Source of the DNA: a virus
Taxonomy: Duplodnaviria; Heunggongvirae; Uroviricota; Caudoviricetes
DNA: 64,000 bases
Reading direction: 5' to 3' (one strand)
Virus record (IMG/VR): IMGVR_UViG_3300044673_000278
Location: 187,694 to 251,693 of that record
Part shown: positions 6,061-46,404 of the stretch, one piece after another
Numbering within the stretch: the stretch's first letter is position 1
Layout: the number at the start of each line of letters is the position of its first letter
Translations under genes and position numbers: made by a program
Notes under the pieces: model-generated
Told to the model about the DNA's origin: nothing
Databases searched by the model: none
What the model saw: only the letters and a program-made list of their open reading frames with translations

Positions 6061-6073
6061 TTAGGATTTTAGA

Positions 6074-8954: not shown

Positions 8955-9274
8955 TTGAATATGAAATGAACTTTGCTGAACCCCGGCCTGTGTTCTACAG
9001 ACTGTATCACAATGAGCAAGGTGTTCCGTTATTCTACAGCATGGAAGACTTGCCAGGTACATACATCGAAATTGACGCGGCAACATTTGCAAGGTCGCCC
9101 TCACGTGTGCGTGTGCGTGACGGTCGGCTGGTAGAGCTAACTTGGAAAACCACTGCAAGACTAGAACAAACAGATGACCGTGGAACGCCTTGCCATCCCC
9201 AAGACGTTGCCATTGTAGTCAACACCAAACAACCACACCAATGCTGGAGCAAACAAACTTATGAACAAAATTGA
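8951..9274 (+). CDS. Hypothetical protein
   Basis: Start moved to the ATG at 8951 (ATGA overlap with the upstream stop). About 107 aa. Confidence 0.4.
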
Positions 9275-10184: not shown

Positions 10185-11563
10185 TGAACAAAGGCGACCA
10201 GAGCAAGTTCATGAGTTCAGCTGAACAAATGAAGCAGGATCTGGGTCCTGCTCTTTGTCTTGCCAAGTGGAAACAGGTTAGCTTTCACTTGCCTACTGGA
10301 CTCAACAACAGTTGTTACCATCCTCCACTGCATCAAATATCAGTGGAAGATCTAAAGCGCACTGGCGGCCTGCACAACACCGACCACAAGAAACAGCAAC
10401 GTAAATTGATGTTGAGTGGCCAACGCCCTAGTGAATGCCAATACTGCTGGAACATGGAAGACCTTGGGCAACTGTCTGATCGACACTACAGGTCAGGCGA
10501 ACCCTGGGCTGCTGTGGACTTTGAAAAAATTCGTAATTCAACCGGAGACGAAGATGATGTCATTCCCAGCTATGTTGAGGTTAATTTTAATAACGCTTGT
10601 AACCTTAAGTGCAGTTATTGTAGTCCCCAGTTTAGCTCTAGCTGGGGAGACGAAGCTAATCGTTATGGCGCTTATCCTACTTCCGTACCACACAATTCTC
10701 CAGAACATTTTACTGGGGCTAGACGTGTTATACCCGCTAGGGAAAGCAATCCCTACGTTGAAGCGTTTTGGCAGTGGTGGCCTACACTGTACCCGCAGCT
10801 TAGACATTTCCGAATGACCGGTGGCGAGCCACTGATGGACCGGAACACTTACAGAGTGTTTGACTATGTGTTGGCTCTTCCCAAACCTGATTTGCATTTA
10901 AATGTAACATCGAACTTTTCTGTGGAACCTGCACTGTTTGAAAAGTATTTGGACTATGTAAAACGACTGTGCAACACTCAAATTGAGCACTTCATGCAAT
11001 ACGTAAGTCTAGACTCTGGTCGTGGATTTCAAGCTGAATACATACGCCACGGTATGGATTCACAGCGTGTGGTCGGCAACGTCAATCGCTATTTGCACGA
11101 AGTTCCATATCGCAACAGCCTAACGTTTATTATCACAATGAACAACTTGAGTGTAACAGGGTTCCGCGAATACATGGAATGGATCTTGCATCTACGTAAG
11201 AGCTACTCTAAGACGTATCAACGTGTATGGTTTGACACACCTGTGCTGCGACAACCAGCCTGGCAGAGTCTGCAGATCTTGCCCGAAAGTTATGCAGCAA
11301 AATTAGAACAGTGCGCAGATTGGATGGCCACACAGGTCACTGCGGACGGGCTGCACGGCTTCCGCGATTACGAAGTACAACGTCTGCGTAGAGACATTGC
11401 ATGGATGCGTGAAGGACAAAAACAAAACAACGATACGGCCAAAGCAGACTTCTATCGTTTCTTTTCTGAACACGACCGTCGTCGAGGCACAGACTTCTTG
11501 CGTACTTTTCCTGAAATGAAAGCCTGGTGGGCAGAATGTGAGTATCATGCTAGGGCAGCATAA
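10184..11563 (+). CDS. Radical SAM enzyme, paralog 1, with an N-terminal Cys-rich twitch/SPASM-like domain
   Basis: CNLKCSYCSP is a CxxxCxxC motif and GGEPL is the SAM-binding glycine motif. The N-terminus reads C..W....TG...SCYHPP...CQYCW. Start set to the ATG at 10184 (TAATG overlap, GAAGGA SD). The ORF-track start at 9983 is an out-of-context 5' extension. Confidence 0.7.
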   Translation: MNKGDQSKFMSSAEQMKQDLGPALCLAKWKQVSFHLPTGLNNSCYHPPLHQISVEDLKRTGGLHNTDHKKQQRKLMLSGQRPSECQYCWNMEDLGQLSDRHYRSGEPWAAVDFEKIRNSTGDEDDVIPSYVEVNFNNACNLKCSYCSPQFSSSWGDEANRYGAYPTSVPHNSPEHFTGARRVIPARESNPYVEAFWQWWPTLYPQLRHFRMTGGEPLMDRNTYRVFDYVLALPKPDLHLNVTSNFSVEPALFEKYLDYVKRLCNTQIEHFMQYVSLDSGRGFQAEYIRHGMDSQRVVGNVNRYLHEVPYRNSLTFIITMNNLSVTGFREYMEWILHLRKSYSKTYQRVWFDTPVLRQPAWQSLQILPESYAAKLEQCADWMATQVTADGLHGFRDYEVQRLRRDIAWMREGQKQNNDTAKADFYRFFSEHDRRRGTDFLRTFPEMKAWWAECEYHARAA

Positions 11564-12659
11564 AATTGTTTGTGACGAATGGGCAGAAGTTTGGGATCTA
11601 CTCAAGCCCTATGCCGATGAAAGCTTCTGGCGCTGGACAGACGTTGACTTTGATCCTACAAAGATCTATATTGTAGGACGTGTGGTTCTCAAAGACAATT
11701 GGCAAGCTATTACAGACTTAGCTACTAAACACCCAGGGCGTATTGTGTTTTCAAATCCTGCCGAAGGCAGTGAAACCATACTGTTGCAGCTAAAACGTCT
11801 ACGTATCACAGAGCATGTGCGTGATGGACGCATAGGACTATTAACTTCAGGCGACTTAGAGCCTGGCTGGCACTATTGCAAAACAGACTGCTATTTTTCC
11901 AACATTGTGGAATATGATGAAAACCGGGCAGCACAAATACAGGCTGCTATGGATTACCGGCATCATCGTCCCTATCAATTTTTGTTCTTGAACGGCCGTC
12001 TACGGCCACACCGCAAATATCTAATAGATACTTTGAGAGACCTTGGACTGTTAGATCACGCACTATGGACCAATTTAGGTAGTCGTGTGGAAATGGGATT
12101 TACCTCATCGTTGACTACATTTCCAGTGGAGCCCATACGATTGTTGCCACCTGAGTATGAAATTGAACGTGCTGTACCTAACTTAACCACTGTAGAACAA
12201 CAGGGATTTGTCAAACATCAATTGTTTAACAATACCTGGGGCGATGCCATTGTAAATCCACGTTGTTACACGGACTCGTGGTTCAGTCTGGTAACAGAAA
12301 CTATTTTTGATTATCCTCATACATTCCGCACAGAAAAAATTTGGAAGCCCATACTGATGGCGCACCCTTTTGTAGTTGCTGCCAATCAGGGATACCTGCG
12401 AGACTTGCAAAACGCAGGATTTAAAACGTTTGGTCATTTAATAGATGAAAGTTACGATCAAATTGATCGCGCCGAAGTGCGAATAAGTCGTATAATAGAC
12501 ACAATGACCTGGCTGTGCAAAGATTCCAATGCTGCTGAATTCTGGGAAGCCAGCCGTGATATTTGTAAATACAATCAACAACATCTTGTGGAATACAATC
12601 GTCAACAGCGAGCTGAATTGCCACAACAACTCTTGACATATCTCAATGAACGATCTTGA
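11538..12659 (+). CDS. GT-B-like protein, paralog 1 (C-terminal Rossmann-like motif)
   Basis: C-terminal motif KPILMAHPFVVAANQGYLRDLQNAGFKTFGHLIDESYD is shared with ORFs 16857-17849, 24357-25547 and 25531-26661. Confidence 0.5.
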   Translation: MSIMLGQHKIVCDEWAEVWDLLKPYADESFWRWTDVDFDPTKIYIVGRVVLKDNWQAITDLATKHPGRIVFSNPAEGSETILLQLKRLRITEHVRDGRIGLLTSGDLEPGWHYCKTDCYFSNIVEYDENRAAQIQAAMDYRHHRPYQFLFLNGRLRPHRKYLIDTLRDLGLLDHALWTNLGSRVEMGFTSSLTTFPVEPIRLLPPEYEIERAVPNLTTVEQQGFVKHQLFNNTWGDAIVNPRCYTDSWFSLVTETIFDYPHTFRTEKIWKPILMAHPFVVAANQGYLRDLQNAGFKTFGHLIDESYDQIDRAEVRISRIIDTMTWLCKDSNAAEFWEASRDICKYNQQHLVEYNRQQRAELPQQLLTYLNERS

Positions 12660-13971
12660 ATTTCGCCGGGAAGTCCTGGACAAGTTAAGCGATAGTTTCT
12701 GTGCTGCAAAGTGGTATAATGCTACCATTTGGCTTGGTAGCGGCATGAGCACCAGCTGCCACCACCCGCCAGCTCACTTGGTGGACAAAGATAAAGTCCG
12801 GGCCAACCCTAGGCTGCTGCACAATACTCCGCAGAAAAAAGACGACCGACGCAAAATGTTGGCTGGCGAGCGCCCTGCAGGTTGCGAATACTGTTGGAAA
12901 ATCGAAGACATGGGACGCAATGCTATTTCGGACCGTGTGTACAAATCACGAATCTATCCCATAGAGGCCTTGCATGAAGCTAGAGCTACACCCGCAGATC
13001 AAGACGTCAACCTCCGTACTTTGGAAATTGCTTTCGATCGTACTTGTCAGTTTGCTTGCAGCTATTGCAACCCAGCTTTCAGTACGACATGGGTTAATGA
13101 TATTCGGCGTAACGGACCCTATAATGGTTTGGTTAGTGACGGCCGCAATCACTTCACTCACACTCATGACAGTAGTCAGCTCTATAAAATTACTGAGAGC
13201 AACCCATACATTGATGCTTTTTTCTCTTGGTGGGAGTCGGACCTACACCATACACTTCAGGAACTCAGAATCACAGGTGGAGAGCCCCTCATGTCCGGCC
13301 ACACCTGGCGACTCATTGATTGGTTCCGGGATAATCGCGGCCGTAGCCAGACTCGCTTGGCAATCAACTCAAATCTTGGTCCGCAGGTAGATATATATCG
13401 ACTGCTGGACTCTACTGAAGGCATGGATGTAGAAATCTACACTAGTCAGGAAGCAGTGGGCAAACAGGCAGAGTATATTAGAGATGGCTTGGATTACCCA
13501 CTTTGGCGTCAAAACGTCATGGCTTTGCTAGACGCGGGTCGCACTGTGCATGTTATGTGTACTATAAATGCACTGTGCTTGACTACACTGCCGCGCTTGT
13601 TGAATGAACTGGTAGAATGGAAACGCACATACGGGCGTGACCGTGTTAATTTCACTTTGAATATCCTACGCTTCCCGTCATTTCAATCGCCTTTGGTTTT
13701 ACCTGATCATTTACGTGAACAATTCAAAGGTGATTTGACACAATGGTTGGTCGATCACCGTGGCTATAGTTACATGCAAGAACACGAAATTAATCACACG
13801 CAACGATTAATAGATTATTTGGATGTTGTTAAAACTCCGCATTCAGATGCATTTGAAATGCCCAAGCTGCACAACGACTTTCGCGAGTTTTATCGACAGT
13901 ACGATCAACGCCGCGGACGAGATTTTGCTGAGTATTTCCCCGAATTAAAAGAATGGTATCAATCATTATGA
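12646..13971 (+). CDS. Radical SAM enzyme, paralog 2
   Basis: CQFACSYCNP (CxxxCxxC) and GGEPL motifs. N-terminal CAAKWYNATIWLGSGMSTSCHHPP...CEYCW. Confidence 0.7.
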   Translation: MNDLEFRREVLDKLSDSFCAAKWYNATIWLGSGMSTSCHHPPAHLVDKDKVRANPRLLHNTPQKKDDRRKMLAGERPAGCEYCWKIEDMGRNAISDRVYKSRIYPIEALHEARATPADQDVNLRTLEIAFDRTCQFACSYCNPAFSTTWVNDIRRNGPYNGLVSDGRNHFTHTHDSSQLYKITESNPYIDAFFSWWESDLHHTLQELRITGGEPLMSGHTWRLIDWFRDNRGRSQTRLAINSNLGPQVDIYRLLDSTEGMDVEIYTSQEAVGKQAEYIRDGLDYPLWRQNVMALLDAGRTVHVMCTINALCLTTLPRLLNELVEWKRTYGRDRVNFTLNILRFPSFQSPLVLPDHLREQFKGDLTQWLVDHRGYSYMQEHEINHTQRLIDYLDVVKTPHSDAFEMPKLHNDFREFYRQYDQRRGRDFAEYFPELKEWYQSL

Positions 13972-15650
13972 CTGTAGAACACACATTACAACATCTGCGC
14001 CAACAATATAATGTTGTAGCCGAAATTGATTTGAATTTTTGGAACGACAGTTATGAACAAAGTGTGGAAACTCTGATTCAAAAACTGCAACAAGCACATG
14101 CCCCTGCCTACACCGACAATCAACGCATTGTGTTTATACATCAACACGACTACTATGTTGGCCGCAGCACGGTTGGATTGATCTTAAAAAACATTCAAAT
14201 TCAATTGAACGAAGTTGATATCAGCAATTATTTTGCCATAGTGGTCAGCACTGCTGAAGATATCAGTGAGCAAATAAAGTCTCTTAAAGAAATCAGCACA
14301 GATTCTGTACCTGTGGGATTTGAATCAGCAGCAGGTGCTTTTGTTCGACATCAATTGGATCGCCATCCCTACAGCAGAAAAGAAGAATATCAATATGGAT
14401 CCAGCAATCCTATAAAAATTGACGTGAATGAATTGACTGACCGTGAACGTTTTTTGCTGACAGAAAGCCGGACATTTTGCATTTATCCTTGGATACACAT
14501 ACACGCTTATCCCACAGGCGAAGCCTATCCTTGCTGTCACGCTGAAATGAAGCCCGGTGTAGTGGGCAATTGTCGCACACAGACCTTGGAGGAAATATGG
14601 CAAGGGGAACCCATGCAGCGTCTGCGCGACGACATGCTAAACGAACGTGAACATCCTGCATGCACACGTTGTTACGAACAGGAAGCATCGGGGTTCTTTA
14701 GTGGTCGTAGATCTGCCAACAAGCATCACGGGCATCACATAAAGAAATTAGAAGAGAATCCGTTTGAATTAACGTATTGGGATATTCGATTCTCCAACCT
14801 TTGTAATCTACGTTGCCGCAGTTGCGGTCACATCTTCAGTAGCCAGTGGTATCAAGATCAAGCAAAACTAGCAGGACCAGAATGGAAACTCAATAATTCA
14901 GTGTTGAACTATGCTGGACGCACAGAAACGGACATGTGGCAACAGCTGGAACCACATCTTGATTATGTAGAACAAATTTACTTTGCCGGCGGCGAACCAC
15001 TGCTCATGGAAGAGCACTACAATATTCTAGAAGAATTAGTACGCCGTGGGCGCACAGATGTGCGATTGATCTACAACACCAATTTTACACACACCGACCT
15101 AAAAGGACGCAGTGTATTTGAATATTGGAAACAATTCAAGAGTGTGGCAGTGGGCGCTAGCCTAGACGACATGGGCAGTCGTGGGGAATACATTAGAAAA
15201 GGCACTGCATGGGGACAGGTTGAAAAGAATCGCGAAGACATGCTGCGAATTTGTCCCGAGGTAGACTTTTACATTAGCCCTACGCTGAGCATAATGAACG
15301 CACGTCATTTGCCCAAGTTTCATCGTGTGTGGGTCGAAAAGGGCCTAATTCGTGCGCAGGACTTGAATGTAAACATCCTACAAGATCCTGCACATTATAG
15401 AATTGACATTGCTACCCCAGAATACAAAGCAGAACTAACTGGCCTGTATCAACAACACGTAGCATGGTTGAAATCTGTAGGAGATCCGTTGGGCCGAGCC
15501 ACGCAGGGATTTGAATCCGCGATCACATTTATGAACGCCACAGACAACAGCCATTTGATTCCCAAGTTCTGGGAAAAAACCAATCAATTGGATGCTATTA
15601 GAAATGAAAGCTGCTTGGATATTATTCCCGAGCTAGGAGCCTTGAAATGA
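13968..15650 (+). CDS. Radical SAM enzyme, paralog 3 (longer N-terminal extension)
   Basis: CNLRCRSCGH and GGEPL motifs. N-terminal CIYPWIHIHAYPTGEAYPCCHAE...CTRCYEQE. Start set to the ATG at 13968 overlapping the upstream TGA (ATGA); the first in-frame ATG at 13953 is an alternative. Confidence 0.65.
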   Translation: MTVEHTLQHLRQQYNVVAEIDLNFWNDSYEQSVETLIQKLQQAHAPAYTDNQRIVFIHQHDYYVGRSTVGLILKNIQIQLNEVDISNYFAIVVSTAEDISEQIKSLKEISTDSVPVGFESAAGAFVRHQLDRHPYSRKEEYQYGSSNPIKIDVNELTDRERFLLTESRTFCIYPWIHIHAYPTGEAYPCCHAEMKPGVVGNCRTQTLEEIWQGEPMQRLRDDMLNEREHPACTRCYEQEASGFFSGRRSANKHHGHHIKKLEENPFELTYWDIRFSNLCNLRCRSCGHIFSSQWYQDQAKLAGPEWKLNNSVLNYAGRTETDMWQQLEPHLDYVEQIYFAGGEPLLMEEHYNILEELVRRGRTDVRLIYNTNFTHTDLKGRSVFEYWKQFKSVAVGASLDDMGSRGEYIRKGTAWGQVEKNREDMLRICPEVDFYISPTLSIMNARHLPKFHRVWVEKGLIRAQDLNVNILQDPAHYRIDIATPEYKAELTGLYQQHVAWLKSVGDPLGRATQGFESAITFMNATDNSHLIPKFWEKTNQLDAIRNESCLDIIPELGALK

Positions 15651-16864
15651 ACCTACCGCACGATAAATTTTGCGTATTACCGTGGATCAGCTTGGAAGCG
15701 TCGCCTATTGGCACAGTGCGCCCATGCTGCTTGGCCGATGACGAGATTTTAGATAATCAAGGCAACAAGTTTAGTCTACTCACTGCTGACTTCTCAGACA
15801 TACAAAACAGCGATAATATGCGCAGTCTAAGACAGCAATTTCTTGCCGGAGAGAAACCACAGACTTGTAGAAAATGCTGGAACGAAGAACGTGCAGGTCG
15901 TACATCAAAGCGTATGCATACCTTGGACAGACTCAAGCATGTGATTGGCAACACTGAGTGGACTGAGGATGCCAAACCCCTGATGTTCTTGGACTTGAAG
16001 CTGGGCAACATCTGCAACCTAAAATGCCGTATCTGCGGATCGTGGAGCTCTAGTCAGTTTGCCACAGAAGAAATCAATGACGCTCCACCAGAAGAAAAGA
16101 AGCATACATATGCTTATCAAATGTTACGTGCTGGTGCCTGGCCCAGAGAAAATCAACAGTTCTGGCAACAAATTGATCAACACTTAAATGATATTCGTTA
16201 CATTGAATTCACTGGTGGCGAGCCTTTTATGATCCGGGAACATTTCGCTATGTTGCAAGGCATTGTGGATCGTGGCATTGCTCATCAAGTTGAAATTCAT
16301 TACAACACCAATGGTACCATTTTCCCCGAAGAAGCCGAACACATTTGGAAGCATTTTAAAACAGTGGAAGTCGCATTCAGTATCGATGATGTAGGTGAAC
16401 GTTTTGAATATCAGCGAAGCAATGCTGTGTGGACAGAAGTGTGTGCTAACTTGGATCGTTTCCGTGATCTCAAAGAGATTTATCCCAATATTGTGCTGCA
16501 AGTATGCACCACAGTGAATGTGTTTAATGTTCGCTATTTGGATCAAGTAGCACATTGGATATACCGCAATCGAGAAAGCTTTAATTTTGTGTATTGGAAC
16601 ATGATGCACGATGCTTGGTATTTCTCCATTGCTACCTTGCCAGACACGGCAAAGCAAGCCATTGCTGACCACTTGCAAACAGCAGACATTCCTGCTGTGT
16701 ATCGAGAAGAAATCAATCGCATCATTGATTTTATGAATCGCGGTGCATCAACGGACGGATTTATGACACGCATGAAAATTCGTGACTTGGATCGCAAGCG
16801 CCAGCAAAACTTGGCCACTGTGGCTCCGGAATTTGCTGCACTGATTGAATACAGTTATGAGTAA
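15647..16864 (+). CDS. Radical SAM enzyme, paralog 4
   Basis: CNLKCRICGS and GGEPF motifs. N-terminal CVLPWISLEASPIGTVRPCC...CRKCWNEE. ATGA overlap with the upstream gene. Confidence 0.7.
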   Translation: MNLPHDKFCVLPWISLEASPIGTVRPCCLADDEILDNQGNKFSLLTADFSDIQNSDNMRSLRQQFLAGEKPQTCRKCWNEERAGRTSKRMHTLDRLKHVIGNTEWTEDAKPLMFLDLKLGNICNLKCRICGSWSSSQFATEEINDAPPEEKKHTYAYQMLRAGAWPRENQQFWQQIDQHLNDIRYIEFTGGEPFMIREHFAMLQGIVDRGIAHQVEIHYNTNGTIFPEEAEHIWKHFKTVEVAFSIDDVGERFEYQRSNAVWTEVCANLDRFRDLKEIYPNIVLQVCTTVNVFNVRYLDQVAHWIYRNRESFNFVYWNMMHDAWYFSIATLPDTAKQAIADHLQTADIPAVYREEINRIIDFMNRGASTDGFMTRMKIRDLDRKRQQNLATVAPEFAALIEYSYE

Positions 16865-17849
16865 AATCCGTTTCATTTACCAGCAAGGCAATTATCCCTG
16901 TTTTATAAACGGGGATATTCAGCGCATTGTTGAATCCTGGTACGACATTGAAGTGTATGATCCTGCCAAAACATACAATCCTCAGGACACTGTGATTCTA
17001 ATAACTCATGTAGAAGAAGTAGAAACAAGAAATAGCACTGGATGGTTTACCCCTTTTGAACAAGCTGGATTTAGAGTGGTAGTAGATCATTTGTGGGATA
17101 GCGATGTTGACACACCCAGCATGATCAAAAATGGTCGTTTAATTCTACGCAACGGTAATTGGGTTTGGTATAGAGAATGTATCAGATTCATTGAGCAAGG
17201 CTATCATACATATGAACCGCAAAGGAATTACAGTCATGCGTTCTTTATGCCCATGCACAAAACACGCTGGCACAGAGATCAAGCACAGGAACGACTGGCG
17301 CCTGTTTTGCAACACGCTTTATGGAGCTATGTTGAAAAAGGCATTCTTGTAGAAGGAGATGTAGATCATTCTACTCCTAGCAATATCTTTTGGGAATTCT
17401 ATGTCAATCCTGAGTGGTACAACAGTACATTTTTCAGTGTGGTATCTGAAAGTTACATGAGATCTGACCGGTGGGTTCAAAGTCCTTTTGTACCTAACTA
17501 TAGAACAGAAGTCAGTGAAAAGTTATTCAAGCCCTGTATGTTTTATCACCCCATGGTAGTGTATGGTTCATTGGGCACACTGGAATATCTGCACCGCGAA
17601 GGTTTTGAAACTTTTAGCAATCTCTGGGACGAAAGTTATGACACTGTGCCCACAGACCAGCAGCGCCACGATGTAGTGACCAAATTGATTCTGGACAATG
17701 TTGATAGATTTTTGCGAGGAGATCTTGGTATAGATTCGCTGACTCAACAAAAGCTCGAACACAATCACGCTAGAATATTTGACCACAACCTAGTGCTGCA
17801 AAGATTTGAACGTGAGATCATTGGTGACCTGCAAAGGTTCTTGGGATGA
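16857..17849 (+). CDS. GT-B-like protein, paralog 2
   Basis: C-terminal FKPCMFYHPMVVYGSLGTLEYLHREGFETFSNLWDESYD motif. First ATG at 16857 overlaps the upstream stop; the ORF-track start at 16845 is a TTG. Confidence 0.5.
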   Translation: MSKIRFIYQQGNYPCFINGDIQRIVESWYDIEVYDPAKTYNPQDTVILITHVEEVETRNSTGWFTPFEQAGFRVVVDHLWDSDVDTPSMIKNGRLILRNGNWVWYRECIRFIEQGYHTYEPQRNYSHAFFMPMHKTRWHRDQAQERLAPVLQHALWSYVEKGILVEGDVDHSTPSNIFWEFYVNPEWYNSTFFSVVSESYMRSDRWVQSPFVPNYRTEVSEKLFKPCMFYHPMVVYGSLGTLEYLHREGFETFSNLWDESYDTVPTDQQRHDVVTKLILDNVDRFLRGDLGIDSLTQQKLEHNHARIFDHNLVLQRFEREIIGDLQRFLG

Positions 17850-18448: not shown

Positions 18449-19410
18449 AAAAAATTCTAGTGTGTGGCGCCGGGGGATTTATTGGTACCCATTTGGTTCG
18501 CAGTTTGCGAGCACAAGGCCATTATGTCATAGGTGCAGATCTGCACAGGCCTGAATTTAGTGCCACTGACGCCAACGAATTTCACATTGTGGATCTTCGC
18601 AACCAGCGACAAGTAACACGGCTAATCACAGCAGACATAGACGAAATATATCAGTTGGCAGCAGACATGGGCGGCGCAGGCTATATTTTCACAGGCAACA
18701 ATGATGCTGAAATCATGCACAATTCGGCTATCATTAATTTGAACATCCTACACGAAATGGTGTTTAAGAAAATCGAGAAGATCTTTTACAGTTCCAGTGC
18801 CTGCATTTATCCTGCATACAATCAAGAAGATCCTGACAATCCTGTAATGAGTGAGGAATCGGCCTACCCAGCAGCGCCCGATTCAGAATATGGATGGGAA
18901 AAGTTATTCAGTGAACGGTTGTATGCTACATTTGCTCGCAATCACGGCATAGATGTACGCATTGCAAGATTGCACAATGTATTTGGCCCAGAGTCGGCTT
19001 GGACTGGCGGCAGAGAAAAAGCACCTGCTGCACTGTGTCGCAAGGTAGCGCAGTGCGACAATCAAGGTATTATTGACGTTTGGGGCCCAGGCACACAAAC
19101 TCGTAGTTTCTTATATATAGATGAATGTATAGAAGGTATTCATAGACTTATGGCCAGTGATCATACACAGCCTATCAATATTGGTAGCAAAAGAATGATC
19201 AGCATAAATCAATTGGTGTTTTTAATTGCCGACCTGGCCAACAAGTCAGTGTCTATACGTAACATAGATGGGCCACGTGGCGTAATGGGACGCACCAGCG
19301 ATAATACTTTGATACAACAAGTCCTGGGGTGGGAACCACCGGACAACTTAGAACACGGATTAACGCAACTATACAATTGGATCAGTGAACAAATTTATGC
19401 AAAAGCCTGA
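18445..19410 (+). CDS. GDP-mannose 3,5-epimerase-like NAD-dependent epimerase (extended SDR)
   Basis: GAGGFIGTHL Rossmann motif, YSSSACIYP and a YGWEK catalytic YxxxK. The strings WTGGREKAPAALCRKV and TRSFLYIDECIEG are near-identical to plant GDP-mannose 3,5-epimerase. Confidence 0.75.
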   Translation: MKKILVCGAGGFIGTHLVRSLRAQGHYVIGADLHRPEFSATDANEFHIVDLRNQRQVTRLITADIDEIYQLAADMGGAGYIFTGNNDAEIMHNSAIINLNILHEMVFKKIEKIFYSSSACIYPAYNQEDPDNPVMSEESAYPAAPDSEYGWEKLFSERLYATFARNHGIDVRIARLHNVFGPESAWTGGREKAPAALCRKVAQCDNQGIIDVWGPGTQTRSFLYIDECIEGIHRLMASDHTQPINIGSKRMISINQLVFLIADLANKSVSIRNIDGPRGVMGRTSDNTLIQQVLGWEPPDNLEHGLTQLYNWISEQIYAKA

Positions 19411-20695
19411 CACACTGTGCCTAGCACCTTGGACACACACATATCTCAGTCCACAAACGGAGCGTAGAATGTGCTGTGCCAGTCGCGAGCCAGCACAGAA
19501 TTTTGAACAGTACATTGATACATCTGCTGGCACCGGGCGGTATATTCCGCTGACATTGGAACAGCACTGGAATTCAGAGCACATGCGAAGTGTACGCCGA
19601 AGAATGATGGCCGGAGAAACCTTGCCTGAGTGCGATGTGTGCAACAACAAACTGTTAAATACCTCAGTATATCGAGATTACTTTGGTCACCTCTTTGGAC
19701 ACAAACTAGATGAAGTCTACGCAACAACTACCGCTGACGGTTATACAACCATGGAGCCTGTGTCCTGGGACTATAGGTTCAGTAATCTCTGCAACTTTAA
19801 ATGTAGAACTTGCGGGGACATGCTCAGTTCTGCGTGGGAAAGCGAAGAGAAAACTCATGACATGGTTAATTGGGCAAATCCTAGTAATAACTGGATGCGC
19901 AGTGATGTTAGGCAGCAAATATCACAGTTTCAGGATACACAGATTGAGCAAGAATTCTCTGATGCTGTGGAACAGCATCGAGTAGAAGAAGTCTACTGGG
20001 TAGGCGGCGAACCCTTGATGTATGAACAACATTGGCGTTATATGAAACGCATTGTTGAATTAGGAGACGGAGGACGACTATATGCCAGGTACAACACTAA
20101 TCTCAGCAGGATTAGTTATCGCGGCTGTGACTTATATCGTGATCTGCTGGTACATGTACGCGACTGGCAAATTTGCGCCAGTATTGACGGAACAGGAACA
20201 ATCGGAGAGTACATACGTACTGGTCTGGACTATGGGGTTTTTCTAAAGAACTTCGAAGCTGGTGTGGCCGTACAAAAAAATCGTCGACAGATGAGATTGG
20301 ATTTTACGTTGACGCTGCCGGGCATGTTTGAAGTCAATGCAATACAACAGCTTGCTCGCACATACGATGTAGAGCTATTGGCCAAAGTGATCTTTAGTTT
20401 TACCCCAGATATTGCAATGAGTCCATTGGCTTTGCCCAGGCAGCTATTAGACGACTGGGTTGATGAGTTGGTACCCGAATGTACATCAGGGGCCATGCGC
20501 GATGTTCTACTACAGTTAAAGAATCGTCCTACGTTTGAACAACAATGGCCCGATCAATATCGTGCAGGGCTTGCAAAAGGCAAAGCTCGTGTGTTAAAAT
20601 TAGAAAGCATACGCACACAGTCAATAACCATGGGGGAAATATTGGCTCAGCGTCCAGAAGTATTGAAATGGTGGAACGAAATTGAACCCAATTGA
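19385..20695 (+). CDS. Radical SAM enzyme, paralog 5
   Basis: CNFKCRTCGD and GGEPL motifs. N-terminal CLAPWTHTYLSPQTERRMCC...CDVCNNK. Confidence 0.7.
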   Translation: MNKFMQKPDTLCLAPWTHTYLSPQTERRMCCASREPAQNFEQYIDTSAGTGRYIPLTLEQHWNSEHMRSVRRRMMAGETLPECDVCNNKLLNTSVYRDYFGHLFGHKLDEVYATTTADGYTTMEPVSWDYRFSNLCNFKCRTCGDMLSSAWESEEKTHDMVNWANPSNNWMRSDVRQQISQFQDTQIEQEFSDAVEQHRVEEVYWVGGEPLMYEQHWRYMKRIVELGDGGRLYARYNTNLSRISYRGCDLYRDLLVHVRDWQICASIDGTGTIGEYIRTGLDYGVFLKNFEAGVAVQKNRRQMRLDFTLTLPGMFEVNAIQQLARTYDVELLAKVIFSFTPDIAMSPLALPRQLLDDWVDELVPECTSGAMRDVLLQLKNRPTFEQQWPDQYRAGLAKGKARVLKLESIRTQSITMGEILAQRPEVLKWWNEIEPN

Positions 20696-21728
20696 AATGG
20701 ATCTCCGATCGGAGTCGGGCAATATATTAACTGTTTACATAGATGTAGCACACAACAGTCTAAGCCGCAAATGGGTCACAGCACTAAAGGAGTTAGTGGA
20801 AAATGATTACCATTTGGAAAAGAATTATTGCTGGTTTGGCTGGACTCAAAGCCGACGCAACGCCGAATACCTATGCGGATCCATTAACAGTAGTATCAAT
20901 GCTATTAATAGAGCTAACCTGGGTTATCGCATTGATTGCCCTAGTTACACAGTTTCTAACACAATAAAAGATGACTTGGATATCAATCATGAGCGCATGA
21001 ATTGGTTGCATCGATATTTTGAAGATCTGCAGGGTGTGTCGGGTAGAATGAGTCCCTACTACGAAGCAGCTGATGCAGAAACACGCTGGCATATACGCCA
21101 ACTCAATTTGTTGTGCCATGAATACGAAAGCCTGGTGCTGAGCATGCGCAAAGACGTACAGGCACCTGAGTGGAAAAGACCCAGTCAGCTGATGTGCTGG
21201 TTGCATGCACCGCGCTTTGAGTTGGATGAAGAAGACCACGAACTGTTTGGTATTGAAACCATTAATCGCAGCCTGGGTGGTGTGTATGTGGGGGTAAACA
21301 AAGCAGTAGGTAAACATCACTGGGAAGTATTCAATGATGAAGGTCGAGACAGTCGCATTGATGAACTAGTGACTACCACACTCAAAACTCAAACTGAAGC
21401 AGCAGGGGACTTTGACATTGAATGGGCTCGTGATCCGGGTGCATATCATTGGCAACAAGTAAAATTGCGAGAATTTCGCCAATGGCTGCTGGACAACGGT
21501 TTTGATCCCGACGACAAAAGTCTAACCATTGGACACCCCAAGGTTGCGCAGGTAGATCTTTTACGCAGTTTTGGCACAGAAGACTACCAACAAATCTGGA
21601 GCTTGTTGGCACAACACCTAGATGTATATAAAATCCGTGTAGACGGCTGCGAAGCTACATACAACTATAACTGGAGTGATCCAGATTATATGCAGCAGCA
21701 AGTGGCTGCAATCAAACAAGGAAAATAA
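20682..21728 (+). CDS. Hypothetical protein (348 aa)
   Basis: ORF with overlapping start inside the island. No recognisable motif. Confidence 0.45.
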   Translation: MNPIEMDLRSESGNILTVYIDVAHNSLSRKWVTALKELVENDYHLEKNYCWFGWTQSRRNAEYLCGSINSSINAINRANLGYRIDCPSYTVSNTIKDDLDINHERMNWLHRYFEDLQGVSGRMSPYYEAADAETRWHIRQLNLLCHEYESLVLSMRKDVQAPEWKRPSQLMCWLHAPRFELDEEDHELFGIETINRSLGGVYVGVNKAVGKHHWEVFNDEGRDSRIDELVTTTLKTQTEAAGDFDIEWARDPGAYHWQQVKLREFRQWLLDNGFDPDDKSLTIGHPKVAQVDLLRSFGTEDYQQIWSLLAQHLDVYKIRVDGCEATYNYNWSDPDYMQQQVAAIKQGK

Positions 21729-21827
21729 CATGGGCTGGATTCGAAGAATGATTGAGCGAATTCGTTTAGAAATTCGCTATCGTAAAAAACTCAAAGAACT
21801 GCGCAAGCGTGATCCATTCATTTACAA

Positions 21828-23306
21828 ATGAACATTCTTGGTATTTCAGCAGGATTTCATGATGCTGCCATTGCTGTACTCAGTGACTCTGGCGAAATAA
21901 GATTTGCCAGCCACAGCGAACGCTATAGCAAAAACAAGCATGACACAGACCTATGTGATGCTATCCTAGATGACATTGATCAGTACACCATAGGGCAGAT
22001 TGCATACTACGAACGTCCTTGGGCACGACAGTTGCGACAGCTATGGGCTGGTCAAGGCGTAGACTGGAATCAACTCACTGTGAAAGAAATTGTGCGCCAG
22101 CAAACTGGCTCAAGATTTCGCGGTGTAAAAGCTCGCGGATACAATCATCATCTATGCCATGCAGCCGCAGGGTTTCAAACATCGCCTTATAATCGTGCCA
22201 CAGTTGTTGTAATCGATGCCATTGGCGAATGGGACACAATAACAATATGGGGAGCAGAATATGATTCAAAAGGTCGTGCGCAGTATAAAAAACTTTGGAG
22301 TCGCGGTTACCCGCATTCAATTGGACTCTTCTACAGTGCAGCTACTAGCCGCGTTGGCCTACGCCCACTAGACGAAGAATACATACTCATGGGCATGGCC
22401 GCCTATGGTGAACGTGGATTCGGCAGTCTCATGCGTCAAGACCTTGTGGCTGATGCTTGGGAAATTGAGTTCAAGCAAAACCTGCACATGGGACTGGAGC
22501 AGAAGTATCTCAGTTATGTGGCGGACATGGACATTGCCGCTGGCGCACAAGATTTAGCCGAAGATCTCATCATGAATGTCATGCGTAGAGCTCGAGCATT
22601 TGGCTGGAGCAACAACCTTGTGTACATGGGCGGTGTTGCACTGAATTGCAGTGCCAATAGGAGGTTAGGTGAGTGTTTTGATAACATATGGATTATGCCT
22701 TGTCCTGGTGATGCTGGCTCTAGCCTGGGCGCCGCCGCACTGGCTTACGGTAGTAGGATTAATTGGCACGATGCTTTTCTGGGCCATGATATTAGAGGCC
22801 CTTACCCTGTTAATGCCATTCTGGACGAGCTTGTGTCTAATCGTATCGTTGGTGTTGCTAGTGGCCGTGCTGAGTTCGGTCCGCGAGCGTTAGGCAACAG
22901 AAGTTTATTAGCGGACCCTAGAGGTCCAGAAATCAAGGATCAAGTAAATGCAATCAAACGTAGACAAAAATTCCGACCCTTTGCCCCAGTTATTTTGGAG
23001 GAACTGGTTGATCATTACTTTGACATGCCTCGCAATTGGGATCGTAGTAGGTATATGCAAGTCGTCGCTACTTGTAGGCGTCCTGACTTATTTCCTGCTA
23101 TCGTTCACGCTGACGGGACTAGTCGTGTACAGACTGTGCCAAAAGATGGATCGGGAATACGAGAACTGCTTGAAAAATGGTATGTAATGACTGACTGCCC
23201 CATGCTGCTGAACACCAGCTTGAACATACGCGGTGAGCCTATGGTCAATGATCGATTAGACGCAGATAGATTTGAAAAGTTATACGGTGTACGAGTATGC
23301 AGTTAA
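21828..23306 (+). CDS. Carbamoyltransferase (NodU/CmcH/TobZ family)
   Basis: N-terminal MNILGISAGFHDAAIAVL is the Kae1/YgjD-like ASKHA motif of O-carbamoyltransferases. 492 aa. Confidence 0.7.
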   Translation: MNILGISAGFHDAAIAVLSDSGEIRFASHSERYSKNKHDTDLCDAILDDIDQYTIGQIAYYERPWARQLRQLWAGQGVDWNQLTVKEIVRQQTGSRFRGVKARGYNHHLCHAAAGFQTSPYNRATVVVIDAIGEWDTITIWGAEYDSKGRAQYKKLWSRGYPHSIGLFYSAATSRVGLRPLDEEYILMGMAAYGERGFGSLMRQDLVADAWEIEFKQNLHMGLEQKYLSYVADMDIAAGAQDLAEDLIMNVMRRARAFGWSNNLVYMGGVALNCSANRRLGECFDNIWIMPCPGDAGSSLGAAALAYGSRINWHDAFLGHDIRGPYPVNAILDELVSNRIVGVASGRAEFGPRALGNRSLLADPRGPEIKDQVNAIKRRQKFRPFAPVILEELVDHYFDMPRNWDRSRYMQVVATCRRPDLFPAIVHADGTSRVQTVPKDGSGIRELLEKWYVMTDCPMLLNTSLNIRGEPMVNDRLDADRFEKLYGVRVCS

Positions 23307-23309
23307 AAC

Positions 23310-23336
23310 AAAAGCCCCGACAGGGGCTTTGTTGTT
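23310..23336. terminator. Bidirectional intrinsic terminator between convergent genes
   Basis: Hairpin aaagccccgacaggggcttt flanked by A-rich and T-rich tracts. Confidence 0.6.
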
Positions 23337-24385
23337 TATAGATAAGTTTCTAAACCTCCACGACGACGGATATCCTGTGTGCAACAAGATATACCGCCGT
23401 CCCAGAAGTAGCTGTGACGCAACTCACTTATAATCGGATTGATCCGATGCTGCTTACAGTAATCAAACACCTGCTTGTTGTAGGCGCTGAAGATTACATT
23501 CTCTTCGTCTAGCACAAGACAGTTTACATCAAACACTGTCTCAGCCACAAATCCTGTCCATTTGGTTAGATATGTGTTCACAAAGTCTGTGAACTCTGGG
23601 GTAGGAGTTTGACCTTGCACATACCATGCACCGGGGCTGGATTCATATTTGAACTTGCCCACTTCCATGGCAGCCCAGATTGAACTATCCCAAATCTTGC
23701 ACACATCCCAGCCCGGGAAATCCTTGGCCAAGTCCAAGTTAACATCGTGCTTGCTACTGAGCAGCACGCCGGGCTTGAGTATGGCAAACACAGCATCACC
23801 GTGGCCGTCTGTGACAGCTTCGTGTATGCGATATTCCGGACCCAGCACATTGTCTACAATCCAACGTGTCTGCTCGGGCTTTAGGAAATCCGAATTGTCA
23901 AAAAACACATCACGGCCCACACGCACAATGCAACTGGCGCTGGCACCATTTAGGATACAATCAGGATCCCATTGGCTGCGATGTGGATTGACCACTGTGG
24001 CACCTTGACCAGCATAGTCATTGCAAATAGTGTCTAGTTCGGGCATGTTGAGCACACGCAACAGTTTGTCACCCAGTGTAATTTGCCAGTCACGTGGAGT
24101 CAGTGGGGGCAACGGCGCACCGCCACCTTCGGTTTGAAACCATACAAATTGATCTTTGTTGGGCAAATCAGGTCTACGAACAGTGGCACCGTAGCGTTGA
24201 ATAGTCTTGGCCAAGTTGTCAAGGTCTTCTTCGGTTTCTGCTAGGATCTGTTGCAGTTGGTTACGCACCTGCGGATTGTCGATGAAATCAAAATAATCAG
24301 GTGAGTAGGCGCGGCCTACAATTACTTCTTCCAGTGGTTGCCACGATGTATAACTGTTAACGATATTGCTCATGTATTTTCTCAA
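23336..24385 (-). CDS. Pentein-fold amidinotransferase/DDAH-like enzyme
   Basis: C-terminal FWDGGISCCTQDIRRRG resembles the catalytic-Cys motif (GGGxHCxT) of the amidinotransferase/arginine-deiminase superfamily. TDGHGD is a candidate His/Asp site. Confidence 0.45.
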   Translation of the reverse strand: MRKYMSNIVNSYTSWQPLEEVIVGRAYSPDYFDFIDNPQVRNQLQQILAETEEDLDNLAKTIQRYGATVRRPDLPNKDQFVWFQTEGGGAPLPPLTPRDWQITLGDKLLRVLNMPELDTICNDYAGQGATVVNPHRSQWDPDCILNGASASCIVRVGRDVFFDNSDFLKPEQTRWIVDNVLGPEYRIHEAVTDGHGDAVFAILKPGVLLSSKHDVNLDLAKDFPGWDVCKIWDSSIWAAMEVGKFKYESSPGAWYVQGQTPTPEFTDFVNTYLTKWTGFVAETVFDVNCLVLDEENVIFSAYNKQVFDYCKQHRINPIISELRHSYFWDGGISCCTQDIRRRGGLETYL

Positions 24386-25547
24386 TCAAGCTATTTAAAC
24401 GTTGACTCTTGTTGGCCTGAAATAATTGCTGGTTGTGTTCAATATCTCCACGGGCCTGCTCAAACAGCTCAGGAAGATTTCTACTGGCAGCAACTATGCT
24501 TTCTTTGAGAGCTTGCCAACGTTGTGTATGATTTGTGATAGCATCATATCTGTTGTCCAACACATTATCAAATGTTCTGTAACCCAAATCTCTTAGTGCC
24601 TGCAAACTGCCAGTAGCCCCAGCCACAAAGAACAGTTGTCCGTGCTTGATGGCTTTGAATGTTTTTTCTGTGACAAAAGCGCCGCCGCTTTGATCTACAT
24701 CAAATTGACTTTCCAACACAATTTGACAGTAGCTGTCGTTGTAAAACTTGGGCTCCATCACTGAGTGATTGTTGCGATCGCTGTCAGACAGATCATCGCA
24801 ATAGTAAGGAGCGTTCTGCAAGAATCTTGATCTATCGTAACGCAGACGTTGGATCAAATCAACTTCAATAGGGCAATCATTGTCTTCCCCCGTGGCTGCT
24901 TCACAATAACTCCAGTAACTGTGATCTAACACACCAGTGCGCCATAAGTCAGCCATCACAGTGGCACGCCACCATTTGTGTAGTCTGCTGAGACAAGTAA
25001 ATTGTTTGCTTCTAGGCAGTTGATGCACTGGCATAGGCTCAACATCAATGTTTCTTTGATAATACCAAAGCTCAAAATCGTCAAAATGCACAAAGCCATT
25101 GAGCTTGGCAGCAGCGGTGTTGGCACTGACAAACACGTAACACTGCGGTGGCAGCTCATGATCCAACAACAATTTGTCAATTCTTTGTTTGATTCTACCA
25201 GGGTTGTCACCTTCGTGATAGTAGAACAACAAACGTAGACGCTGCTGTTTCACTGCACGAGTCACGTCCTTGGGCAACAAGGAAATATAATCAATTGAAA
25301 AATCAAAGAATCCCAAGCCAATGGGGTACAGTGAATCAGCAGGAAAATTGTCGTTGATATTGAATATGTTGACTGCTACTCCGTGCTGATTGCAGTATTC
25401 TTGTAACCTCAGCGGTACTGTATAAGGCCAATGCTGACCAAATTCTCTCCAGGGTTGAGTGTATGGCCTGGCCTCGTGCTTGGTCAGCGCAGGGTATATT
25501 CTGCCTTTGAGAACTTGATCTGCAATTAGATTAAGGCTCAATTTCAT
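24357..25547 (-). CDS. GT-B-like protein, paralog 3
   Basis: C-terminal TEKTFKAIKHGQLFFVAGATGSLQALRDLGYRTFDNVLDNRYD motif. Confidence 0.5.
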   Translation of the reverse strand: MKLSLNLIADQVLKGRIYPALTKHEARPYTQPWREFGQHWPYTVPLRLQEYCNQHGVAVNIFNINDNFPADSLYPIGLGFFDFSIDYISLLPKDVTRAVKQQRLRLLFYYHEGDNPGRIKQRIDKLLLDHELPPQCYVFVSANTAAAKLNGFVHFDDFELWYYQRNIDVEPMPVHQLPRSKQFTCLSRLHKWWRATVMADLWRTGVLDHSYWSYCEAATGEDNDCPIEVDLIQRLRYDRSRFLQNAPYYCDDLSDSDRNNHSVMEPKFYNDSYCQIVLESQFDVDQSGGAFVTEKTFKAIKHGQLFFVAGATGSLQALRDLGYRTFDNVLDNRYDAITNHTQRWQALKESIVAASRNLPELFEQARGDIEHNQQLFQANKSQRLNSLIEKIHEQYR

Positions 25548-26661
25548 TCAGCATCTCAATGAGTTCTTTCCACAGCACTTTTTCAAATCCGCCATTGTAA
25601 AAATGGTTCCAATTGTGCTCAATTACTTCGCGACACTGATCAAACAACTGTTGTTTGGCTTCTACACTCAGTTGATCTAGACTGCGCAACAAACTAGCAA
25701 TGCGTTCTATGCGAACATCGTCCTCGGCATCGTCGTAACTTTCGTCCCATATGCCCTCAAAGGTTCGAAACCCGTATTCTCTGAGATATTTCAAACTGCC
25801 CTTGGTCCCAACAATAATAAATGGCATGCCCATGGCAATAGGTTTGAAAGTTTTTTCTGTGAGGTGCAATCTTTTTCCTGTGGCCACAGTTTCTGTCACA
25901 AGATACAACAAACTTTCAGCAGCTTCGTCAAACAGACTCAACCAGCAACTGTGCATGGGATGATCAGTTTCGCCGGCAAAATTGATTGGTAATTGTTGAG
26001 ATCCGAATACTTGCTCAATATCAGGATACTTGTTTTTTAATAATTTTACAGCATCAATGATATTGATATTCTCTGCTGGGCACACATCGGGGCAACTGAT
26101 GTGGTTGTCTAGCATGTTGTTTTTAAAGATATGGTACAACATTTCTAATCTATGTTGACGTTCGCCAGCAATGATTCTGTTTGGAGCAAGAAAAGTTTTG
26201 GTAATAGTTCGTTCAGTCCACGGCTTTATCAAAAACGTTTTGTCGTACCCGCGATACCAATCTAACGCAGCCCAGCCGTGAAAGAAATAGTACAAAGATT
26301 TCCACTTGAACCTAGAACATACGTATTCAACACTGACACTGTTTTTCTCACTGGTCATAACATATCCAGCATTTTTTATACGATTGGTATCAAAATTTTC
26401 AATTCGGTTATCGGTGTGAGTGATATCTAAGTTTAACCCTGCAACTTGGCTAAACGTAGGAAGATGAATGTTCAAATGTATTGGCTCTTGATCAAAAAAG
26501 AATATATAATTGTGTTCAGGGATGTCGTCTCTACCGTAGTTCATAACACTTTCGGGATCACTTCTGCCAAAAGGCTCACAGAAAAATGCTCTGTACCCGG
26601 GCCTATTCTTTTTTAACCAAGGCCAAAATGTATTGTTGTAGAGTTCGTCGATTCTAATCAT
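25531..26661 (-). CDS. GT-B-like protein, paralog 4
   Basis: C-terminal TEKTFKPIAMGMPFIIVGTKGSLKYLREYGFRTFEGIWDESYD motif. Confidence 0.5.
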   Translation of the reverse strand: MIRIDELYNNTFWPWLKKNRPGYRAFFCEPFGRSDPESVMNYGRDDIPEHNYIFFFDQEPIHLNIHLPTFSQVAGLNLDITHTDNRIENFDTNRIKNAGYVMTSEKNSVSVEYVCSRFKWKSLYYFFHGWAALDWYRGYDKTFLIKPWTERTITKTFLAPNRIIAGERQHRLEMLYHIFKNNMLDNHISCPDVCPAENINIIDAVKLLKNKYPDIEQVFGSQQLPINFAGETDHPMHSCWLSLFDEAAESLLYLVTETVATGKRLHLTEKTFKPIAMGMPFIIVGTKGSLKYLREYGFRTFEGIWDESYDDAEDDVRIERIASLLRSLDQLSVEAKQQLFDQCREVIEHNWNHFYNGGFEKVLWKELIEMLNEIEP

Positions 26662-46402: not shown

Positions 46403-46404
46403 TC

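Follow-up and report, generated by a model that had tools for sequence, protein, structure and literature searches.

Background

Virus-encoded glycan gene clusters are responsible for the glycans of the Mimivirus fibril and the chlorovirus capsid, and we know of no virion glycosylation system that includes radical-SAM (rSAM) enzymes. The locus described here resembles such systems in that its several soluble, putative glycosyltransferases (GTs) are encoded in a viral cluster together with genes for an NDP-sugar dehydratase, an aminotransferase and an epimerase, near structural genes, and would need no host lipid-carrier machinery for their work in the cytoplasm. It differs in that the GTs of those systems belong to recognised families (GT2, GT4, etc.). 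Its own glycan and acceptor are putative. O-glycosylation of the capsid and tail tube has been reported for mycobacteriophages (Freeman et al. 2023, as cited in PMC12619734), and the citing 'moraphage' paper describes, for freshwater jumbo phages of Bacteroidota, a core that includes four putative GT orthogroups (PMC12619734). Phage clusters for glycan hypermodification of DNA (bioRxiv 10.1101/2023.12.21.572611; PMC13326640) are similar in having GT-B enzymes structurally near the T4 beta-glucosyltransferase (BGT), sequential GTs, partner epimerases and an origin in metavirome contigs, but they are defined by an adjacent 5mYOX/TET and C5-methyltransferase, or by a ThyA-type hydroxymethylase or a hydroxylase, none of which was found among the scanned ORFs of the window (the whole stretch of 64,000 nucleotides analysed here). 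The GT10 alpha-1,3/4-fucosyltransferases (FucT of H. pylori, 5zoi/2nzw; FUT9, 8d0o; plant FUT11/FucT13) are also a close known system.

Four paralogs in a conserved gene cluster

The preliminary description of this DNA proposed four ORFs with a common C-terminal block; all four are present (Table 1), and the block is genuine, being legible directly in each protein. It reads TEKIWKPILMAHPFVV..GFKTF..IDESYD in GTB1, SEKLFKPCMFYHPMVV..GFETF..WDESYD in GTB2, TEKTFKAIKHGQLFFV..GYRTF..LDNRYD in GTB3 and TEKTFKPIAMGMPFII..GFRTF..WDESYD in GTB4, with GTB3 deviating from the consensus twice, by A in place of P and by DNRYD. The ORFs are paralogs: 6/6 pairs are significant by BLASTP (E 1e-8 to 5e-16, 24-36% identity, over the C-terminal 107-155 residues), and an HMM built from the four recovers exactly these from the window's 367 six-frame ORFs, no fifth ORF scoring better than E ~2. 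The block itself shows 31-41% identity; identity falls to 24-31% across the C-terminal part and to only 13-23% across the N-terminal part. GTB1 starts with a GTG at 11538, an ATG lying three codons further downstream; the ATG of GTB2 at 16857 agrees with a 330-aa metagenome protein that is 100% identical.

Table 1. Features of the putative glycan cluster and its surroundings, by position in the window
Feature	Coordinates	Strand	Product or size	Supporting detail
ORF4267	4267-6060	+	Fibre-like virion structural protein	
ORF6074	6074-7039	+	Ser/Thr-rich protein, 321 aa	T 21%, S 8%
ORF7211	7211-8200	+	Unannotated, soluble	DxD-like motifs
ORF8187	8187-8954	+	Unannotated, soluble	DxD-like motifs
ORF9261	9261-10184	+	Unannotated, soluble	DxD-like motifs
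rSAM1	10181-11563	+	N-terminal-twitch radical SAM enzyme	NF033640, 310 bits
GTB1	11538-12659	+	GT-B paralog 1, 373 aa	Shared block 12330-12458
rSAM2	12646-13971	+	N-twitch radical SAM	NF033640, 288 bits
rSAM3	13953-15650	+	N-twitch radical SAM	NF033640, 390 bits
rSAM4	15647-16864	+	N-twitch radical SAM	NF033640, 347 bits
GTB2	16857-17849	+	GT-B paralog 2, 330 aa	Shared block 17514-17642
SDR	18445-19410	+	NAD-dependent sugar epimerase/reductase	Best match GDP-L-fucose synthase, sub-threshold
rSAM5	19385-20695	+	N-twitch radical SAM enzyme	NF033640, 272 bits
Carbamoyltransferase	21828-23306	+	NodU/CmcH type	Pfam Carbam_trans_N E 2e-35, Carbam_trans_C E 6e-47
GTB3	24357-25547	-	GT-B paralog 3, 396 aa	Shared block 24543-24671
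GTB4	25531-26661	-	GT-B paralog 4, 376 aa	Shared block 25732-25860
Aminotransferase	30292-31407	-	DegT/PseC-like sugar 4-aminotransferase	
Dehydratase	31352-32323	-	NDP-hexose 4,6-dehydratase-like SDR	

The genes are ordered ORF9261, rSAM1, GTB1, rSAM2, rSAM3, rSAM4, GTB2, ORF17846, SDR, rSAM5, ORF20682 and carbamoyltransferase, followed on the minus strand by ORF23336, GTB3 and GTB4. GTB1 overlaps both of its flanking genes (rSAM1 and rSAM2), and GTB3 and GTB4 overlap by 17 nt. Syntenic loci were compared in 27 relatives, over 20 kb. GTB1, with an ortholog in 27/27, is the conserved core paralog of the module, and rSAM1 is likewise present in 27/27; GTB2 is accessory, and so is the SDR one gene beyond it (ORF17846 lies between), which is missing from 27/27. 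The carbamoyltransferase is kept in 18/27. In other phages GTB3 and GTB4 are joined as one protein: in the fusions P0241 and P0242, the C-terminal half is made up of relatives of GTB3. ORFs 7211, 8187 and 9261 are present in 27/27 relatives and have no family match in profile searches; their DxD-like motifs suggest that they may be GT-A-like. ORFs 7211 and 8187 are paralogs of each other (E 2e-7), and ORF 9261 shares homology with the C-terminal end of ORF 26660-29674 (E 5e-8). The conserved module joins virion fibre genes, a Ser/Thr-rich protein, the three DxD ORFs, five rSAM enzymes, a carbamoyltransferase and sugar-nucleotide enzymes.

Distribution of the family

The paralogs belong to a family of 11,953 clusters at 50% identity, nearly all members of which come from uncultured aquatic phages. 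Despite its size it escapes Pfam, NCBIfam, PHROGs and PDB sequence profiles: the first three return only noise for the four paralogs, and PDB searches with 4-sequence and 101-sequence profiles give chance matches only (E >= 0.38). Megablast of the region against 50,697 phage genomes found no match, nor did tblastn of GTB1, GTB4 and a distant marine member against the 50,697 deposited phage genomes. No cultured phage offers itself as a model. A scan of genome contigs with GTB4, whose patterns reach close relatives only, found just two contigs, both from one Haliscomenobacter MAG. The public names of cluster members are all 'hypothetical protein'. A family so large, undetected by profiles and not found in the deposited phage genomes, points to a common function of environmental phages that is carried under the label "hypothetical", and its assignment to GT-B glycosyltransferases would give thousands of viral genes a testable function.

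Fold and putative donor site

The family has the GT-B fold: two Rossmann-like alpha/beta domains enclose a cleft, and a helical region at the C-terminus packs back. The earlier interpretation of these ORFs is partly supported: the GT-B fold stands, and glycosyl transfer is the probable activity. Epimerase, hydrolase and phosphotransferase-type enzymes also have this fold, and no GT family model matches the paralogs, which could therefore be NDP-sugar epimerases or hydrolases, phosphotransferases resembling TagF, or scaffolds devoid of activity; we consider such a function very improbable.

All residues invariant across the family lie within the C-domain, where the signature comprises, in order, R-x-H-R after the first strand, V-x-E-[TS], [TS]-E-K-x-x-K-P where a helix begins, and a P-F-[IV]-[IV] strand. 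We take these positions, partly from the hhalign register, to be analogous to the donor contacts of GT10 and BGT. Judged from this conservation, the C-terminal Rossmann domain most likely binds the nucleotide-sugar donor.

Comparison with GT10 and the T4 glucosyltransferases

The donor site may be GT10-like. An alignment of the family with four GT10 sequences by hhalign is weak (probability 26%, pairwise E 7e-4), and that with a single FucT sequence is not significant (3%). At a probability of only 26%, the family motif 'FslVtET..sFxTEK' falls in register with the alpha-1,3-FucT motif F-x-L-x-F-E-N-S-x(4-7)-Y-[VI]-T-E-K, but the family has T or S where GT10 has N-S, 12-23 residues rather than 9 from the E-[TS] strand to TEK, an extra conserved K three residues past TEK, a D-E-S-Y-D motif and, at the C-terminus, a long bundle of helices. 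In further contrast to GT10, PF00852 matches neither the four paralogs, even at E <= 10, nor 86 diverse members; against Pfam as a whole the paralogs give only noise and the 86 members 0 matches at E <= 1e-3, and Pfam GT models (Glycos_transf_1, Glyco_transf_90, etc.; GT4 / GT90) are unmatched by either set. A truly GT10-like site would indicate which nucleotide-sugar donors to try first.

Like the T4 alpha- and beta-glucosyltransferases and the metavirome GT-B enzymes of Pyle et al., the paralogs might transfer sugars to hydroxymethyl- or hydroxy-pyrimidines of phage DNA in order to evade restriction. The family has no sequence relation to BGT (GT63) or the alpha-glucosyltransferase (GT72), the 101-sequence profile aligning with the exact 1bgt sequence at a probability of 0.7%; it is acidic (pI 5.4-6.3), whereas BGT is basic (9.05), and BGT works alone, whereas the paralogs sit in a multi-GT cluster with sugar-tailoring genes. 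Among the scanned ORFs of the window, which is part of a ~350-kb genome, no hydroxymethyl-pyrimidine pathway was seen, and only ThyX was found. DNA as the substrate appears improbable.

Proposed pathway and acceptor

The cluster is most likely a cytoplasmic glycan-assembly pathway. In the reading that we favour, with a probability of about 0.6, soluble GT-B glycosyltransferases act sequentially, with donors made by the cluster, on a virion protein. The four ORFs would be soluble, metal-independent GT-B-fold enzymes of one large family, and their poorly conserved N-terminal domains would assign a separate acceptor to each paralog, so that different sugars or linkages would be added successively to a growing glycan. 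The donors would be made or tailored by the 4,6-dehydratase-like SDR, the 4-aminotransferase, the Fcl-like SDR, the carbamoyltransferase and the five N-twitch rSAM enzymes, the last being assumed to remodel sugars.

The acceptor is the least supported of these claims. A virion protein glycosylated in the cytoplasm is the most plausible candidate because all cluster proteins are soluble, no ORF across 33 kb having transmembrane-like segments, and because the module is fixed beside fibre and Ser/Thr-rich structural genes. The region 4267-7039 is identified by a PHROG virion structural match and by tblastn matches to 'virion structural protein' and 'baseplate wedge/tail pin' of PA5oct, and ORF6074 has orthologs in 27/27 relatives (S+T 27-33%); the products of ORF4267 and ORF6074 are candidate acceptors.

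A non-virion target, either host envelope polysaccharide (remodelling of O-antigen or capsule, superinfection exclusion) or a small, soluble glycosylated compound akin to aminoglycosides or nucleosides, would be served by much the same genes: dehydratase, aminotransferase, NodU/TobZ-type carbamoyltransferase, rSAM enzymes and several GTs are all present, such a set resembles LPS and aminoglycoside gene clusters, and GT25 (LPS) and FkbM methyltransferases occur among the neighbours of distant members. However, the 33 kb encode neither a membrane protein nor a flippase, a polymerase or a priming transferase for a lipid carrier, no scaffold-forming enzyme (e.g. cyclitol synthase) was seen, and the module stays next to structural genes instead of occupying a variable island, which makes this target unlikely. 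A self-contained Wzx/Wzy-type surface-polysaccharide pathway is rejected because no ORF in these 33 kb has a transmembrane-like segment.

A more specific version of the virion reading can be put forward tentatively, namely a novel machine in which GT-B enzymes, single and tandem-fused, add sugars to Ser/Thr-rich fibre proteins while the five rSAM enzymes remodel the sugars or the acceptor by oxidation, epimerisation or C-C chemistry. If so, the resulting glycan chemistry would be so far undescribed in viruses and would be common among uncultured jumbo phages of aquatic origin and T4-like marine myoviruses. The cluster could decide if the virions of aquatic jumbo phages are glycosylated, with consequences for adsorption, protease resistance and grazing or immune recognition.

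Relationship to the radical-SAM genes

All five rSAM genes exceed the curated NF033640 cut-off of 170 bits; rSAM2, rSAM3 and rSAM4 are consecutive and overlapping and have Pfam SPASM and Radical_SAM matches. The preliminary description saw the paralogs as interleaved with these genes and acting with them as enzyme pairs. Gene order bears out the interleaving for GTB1 and GTB2, which touch rSAM genes, but not for GTB3 and GTB4, which adjoin each other 3.6 kb from the nearest one.

That each GT-B enzyme is the dedicated partner of one rSAM enzyme, possibly in a complex and in alternating steps, is a quite improbable extension of this proximity. The rSAM1-GTB1-rSAM2 adjacency, with overlapping frames, is retained in nearly all 27 relatives, rSAM4 overlaps GTB2, and of 16 distant loci (each of at least 15 kb) 10 have a related rSAM gene no more than 10 kb away, whereas such a gene occurs in only 6 of the 50,697 deposited phage genomes. 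Against pairing, only 2/18 distant co-occurrences are immediately adjacent. The rSAM:GT-B ratio is 5:4 in the window and commonly 5:1 or 5:2 within 20 kb in relatives; only GTB1 has a conserved rSAM neighbour, the partner with which GTB3 pairs and fuses is GTB4, and Vibrio phage K566 has four N-twitch rSAM genes, yet a 19-kb region of it that was examined contains no family member. Strict pairing is rejected on these gene counts, fusions, rare adjacency and phage K566, and the association lies at the level of the cluster, not of pairs.

Literature searches for N-terminal twitch radical SAM enzymes, or for phage clusters of radical-SAM and glycosyltransferase genes, found nothing relevant, and a cluster of GTs with five rSAM enzymes of an uncharacterised subfamily offers a starting point for N-twitch radical-SAM function. 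In the metagenome gene calls, rSAM5 starts ~84 nt further in.

Fold and relationships of the GT-B-like paralogs

All four open reading frames assigned to one paralogous family in the preliminary description are present in the window, and the C-terminal block that they were said to share is borne out by BLASTP of their C-terminal 107-155 residues (six of six pairs significant, E 1e-8 to 5e-16), by a four-paralog profile that, run against the window's 367 six-frame ORFs, recovers these four and no others, and by location of the block, [TS]EKx[FW]K..P[FM]..G..G.L..L...G[FY].TF....D[EN][SR]YD, in every paralog. Identity between paralogs is 31-41% in the block versus only 13-23% in the N-terminal parts. 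They were rightly called uncharacterised: none matches Pfam, PHROG or NCBIfam models or PDB sequences, a profile of 101 diverse members found nothing among PDB sequences, and Pfam glycosyltransferase models, including Glyco_transf_10, gave the family no score. Judged by sequence, it belongs to no defined family among those tested.

The predicted structures of paralog 2 (pLDDT 95.7, pTM 0.91) and paralog 4 (pLDDT 83.6, pTM 0.85) each have two beta/alpha/beta domains and match GT-B enzymes, as had been proposed, rather than a non-glycosyltransferase fold. The top match is T4 beta-glucosyltransferase (BGT; 11.3 / 10.8), the others being T4 alpha-glucosyltransferase (10.8 / 8.8), GT10 fucosyltransferases of H. 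pylori and other sources (9.5-10.7) and POGLUT1 (9.7 / 8.9). The shared block forms a helix-strand-helix of the C-terminal Rossmann domain, the domain in which GT-B enzymes bind the nucleotide sugar.

With BGT as the best structural match, and BGT-like DNA glycan transferases already known, the paralogs could be DNA glycosyltransferases, but this is quite improbable: the family is acidic (median pI 5.8, versus 9.05 for BGT), hhalign detects no sequence relation (probability 0.7% against the exact BGT sequence), and the window ORFs scanned include no ThyA-type or TET-type partner, ThyX being of a different fold. Aligned by hhalign with the C-domains of four PDB chains of GT10, the family matches over 41 columns (pairwise E 7e-4, probability 26%), with its consensus yFslVtET..sFxTEKifKPI..ghPFIv.g..G in register opposite KFnLcFENt..YvTEKi..vPv..G. 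Residues that are invariant or nearly so in the 101 diverse members are R171, E257, E269, K270, K273, P280, G297, D306, D310, R317 and N350 (paralog 4 numbering). Because the succession R ... E-[TS] ... T-E-K parallels the donor site of H. pylori FucT, in which R195, N240, E249 and K250 contact GDP-fucose, the family may act like a metal-independent GT10-type GT-B enzyme, although it is not placed in GT10.

Gene cluster and its conservation

The genes from 9261 to 21728 are tightly packed, with stops overlapping starts. All five radical-SAM genes (rSAM1-5) pass the curated cut-off of NF033640, an N-terminal-twitch radical-SAM subfamily, and further cluster products are a NodU/CmcH carbamoyltransferase, an Fcl-like SDR, a dTDP-glucose-4,6-dehydratase-like SDR and a PseC/DegT-like 4-aminotransferase; none of the 26 cluster proteins contains a transmembrane-like segment. 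DxD-like motifs suggest that ORFs 7211, 8187 and 9261, which match nothing in Pfam or NCBIfam, may be GT-A-type transferases; the first two are paralogous (E 2e-7), and the sole match of ORF 8187 is the unannotated PHROG family phrog_1903.

Features of the cluster and of the rest of the window (nt)
Feature	Position	Strand	Remarks
ORF6074	6074-7039	+	321 aa; 21% Thr, 14% Ala, 11% Gly, only 8 Lys+Arg
ORF 7211	7211-8200	+	unannotated, soluble; LDADY
ORF 8187	8187-8954	+	unannotated, soluble; EADM
ORF 9261	9261-10184	+	unannotated, soluble; IDGDN
Paralog 1 (GTB1)	11538-12659	+	shared block 12330-12458
Paralog 2 (GTB2)	16857-17849	+	shared block 17514-17642
ORF17846	17846-18448	+	small, unannotated; N-terminal G-D-S motif, VCGDSF
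Paralog 3	24357-25547	-	shared block 24543-24671
Paralog 4	25531-26661	-	shared block 25732-25860
Acidic protein	26660-29674	+	1004 aa; at least 6 tandem copies of a ~66-aa repeat
Second G-D-S protein	29667-30332	+	small, unannotated; N-terminal G-D-S motif, NFGDSW
Putative RNA/tRNA repair set	37425-41930, 45265-46203, 46632-49207	-	
tRNA array	53644-63067	-	33 tRNA genes, small ORFs interspersed

The repeat of the acidic protein, [FW]D[YW]SW.PDP.[DE]PPYIYVFGNQW.PAE..PTVEYHVPGATERKYM, has motif starts at nt 27020, 27224, 27422, 27620, 27818 and 28232; the C-terminal domain is homologous to ORF 9261 (E 5e-8), and Pfam and NCBIfam gave no match to the protein. The ATG of the acidic protein shares 2 nt with the divergently oriented start of paralog 4, though metagenome gene calls place the protein's start ~38 nt further in. 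The two G-D-S proteins, which match no family, have a motif reminiscent of SGNH/GDSL esterases/acyltransferases, and if of this type could O-acylate or deacylate sugars.

Gene order is conserved in 27 IMG/VR loci with a paralog 1 ortholog (35-78% identical): first a large structural protein and ORF3634, next fibre-like ORF4267 and Ser/Thr-rich ORF6074, followed by ORFs 7211, 8187 and 9261, then rSAM1, GTB1, rSAM2-4, (GTB2), rSAM5, ORF20682 and the carbamoyltransferase. All 27 loci have ORF6074 through GTB1 and seven have GTB2; the Fcl-like SDR and ORF17846 are found in none. The neighbours of more distant members are likewise sugar-tailoring genes (FkbM methyltransferases, UDP-Glc/GDP-Man dehydrogenases, RmlC, DegT, GT25 and radical-SAM genes, including B12-dependent ones). 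Of 16 such loci that span 15 kb or more, 10 have a related radical-SAM gene within 10 kb.

The interleaving of paralogs with radical-SAM genes holds for two of the four but not for the other two, the sole correction to what had been observed. The enzyme pairs proposed from it are unsupported as a one-to-one relation: a radical-SAM gene directly adjoins a family gene in only 2 of 18 distant co-occurrences. The evidence points to association at the level of the cluster, in which paralogs 3 and 4 make up a GT-GT pair. N-twitch-like radical-SAM genes also occur in Ralstonia phage RsoM2USA and Vibrio phages VS1 and VS2. The cultured 255-kb Vibrio phage K566 has four (OZ196521.1, 161548-168284), alternating with unannotated proteins of 311-361 aa that are not members of the paralogs' GT-B family, and the 19-kb region examined has no member; this arrangement may represent a comparable cluster in a phage that can be cultured.

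Proposed pathway and acceptor

By the best-supported reading, the cluster encodes an assembly line for glycans in the cytoplasm. NDP-sugars of 6-deoxy or amino type would be made by the SDRs and aminotransferase, and these sugars or the nascent glycan would then be tailored by the carbamoyltransferase and radical-SAM enzymes. The GT-B paralogs, with a common donor domain and differing acceptor domains, would attach residues one after another; paralogs 4 and 3 probably act as one unit. Modification of the host envelope, or a small molecule as product, is unlikely, since the cluster has no membrane or scaffold-forming enzyme. The favoured outcome is that virion proteins are O-glycosylated, as they are in mycobacteriophages and giant viruses, because the pathway is wholly soluble and fixed beside a fibre protein and a Ser/Thr-rich one. 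The latter, ORF6074, whose orthologs in all 27 syntenic loci contain 27-33% Ser+Thr, is a candidate acceptor; no homologs were found in deposited phage genomes.

Distribution of the family and the phage

GT-B glycosyltransferases and viral glycan clusters are of known kinds; what appears to be new is a sequence family of very large size that none of the Pfam, NCBIfam and PHROG models tested covers (CAZy may already classify it), its restriction so far to uncultured viruses, and the conserved company of five radical-SAM enzymes from an uncharacterised subfamily. A full HMMER scan of 1.84 billion cluster representatives yielded 11,953 proteins at E<=1e-3, of which 7,784 also pass E<=1e-10, and tblastn with three different queries detected no member in 50,697 deposited phage genomes. 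The source names of members are all "hypothetical protein"; the relatives in BFVD, likewise uncharacterised, come from "uncultured Caudovirales phage" and, in one case, from Mimivirus LCMiAC02, with a UDP-glucose/GDP-mannose dehydrogenase N-terminal domain annotated in one relative. A large subgroup lies on contigs of uncultured marine T4-like myoviruses, and a DUF6267 gene adjoining one marine member shares 40% identity with genes found in Pelagibacter phage HTVC008M and in cyanomyoviruses. Each of the 26 long representatives (553-1018 aa) consists of two family modules fused in tandem; P0241 and P0242 are paralog4-paralog3 fusions, in the order of the overlapping window genes.

Paralog 4 orthologs (72-74% identical) occur on two contigs (NZ_JBBAKG010000001.1, 183 kb; NZ_JBBAKG010000003.1, 148 kb) of a GTDB species-representative MAG labelled Haliscomenobacter sp. 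EUL_031. These look like phage contigs binned into a bacterial genome, and may point to a host among the Bacteroidota (Saprospiraceae), which would fit the prediction of Bacteroidota as hosts of freshwater 'moraphages' (PMC12619734).

The window comes from an uncultured jumbo phage. Genes closely related to those of the window lie on metagenome contigs of 335-365 kb; its MoxR/VWA genes and fibre-like structural protein have distant relatives in PA5oct-like phages. The tRNA array covers most amino acids, and has duplicate tRNA genes for Lys, Phe, Pro, Ile and Thr. The genes at 37425-49207 have the appearance of a repair set for RNA or tRNA adjoining it: a DUF2201/VWA metallopeptidase-like protein and a MoxR-type AAA ATPase (45% identical to genes of PA5oct-group phages), a T4-type RNA ligase, and HD-domain, AAA_33 kinase-like and dual-specificity-phosphatase-like proteins. 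G+C content dips to 0.37 at 50001-52000, versus 0.44-0.50 elsewhere in the window, overlapping an unannotated 386-aa ORF (50446-51606, minus strand).
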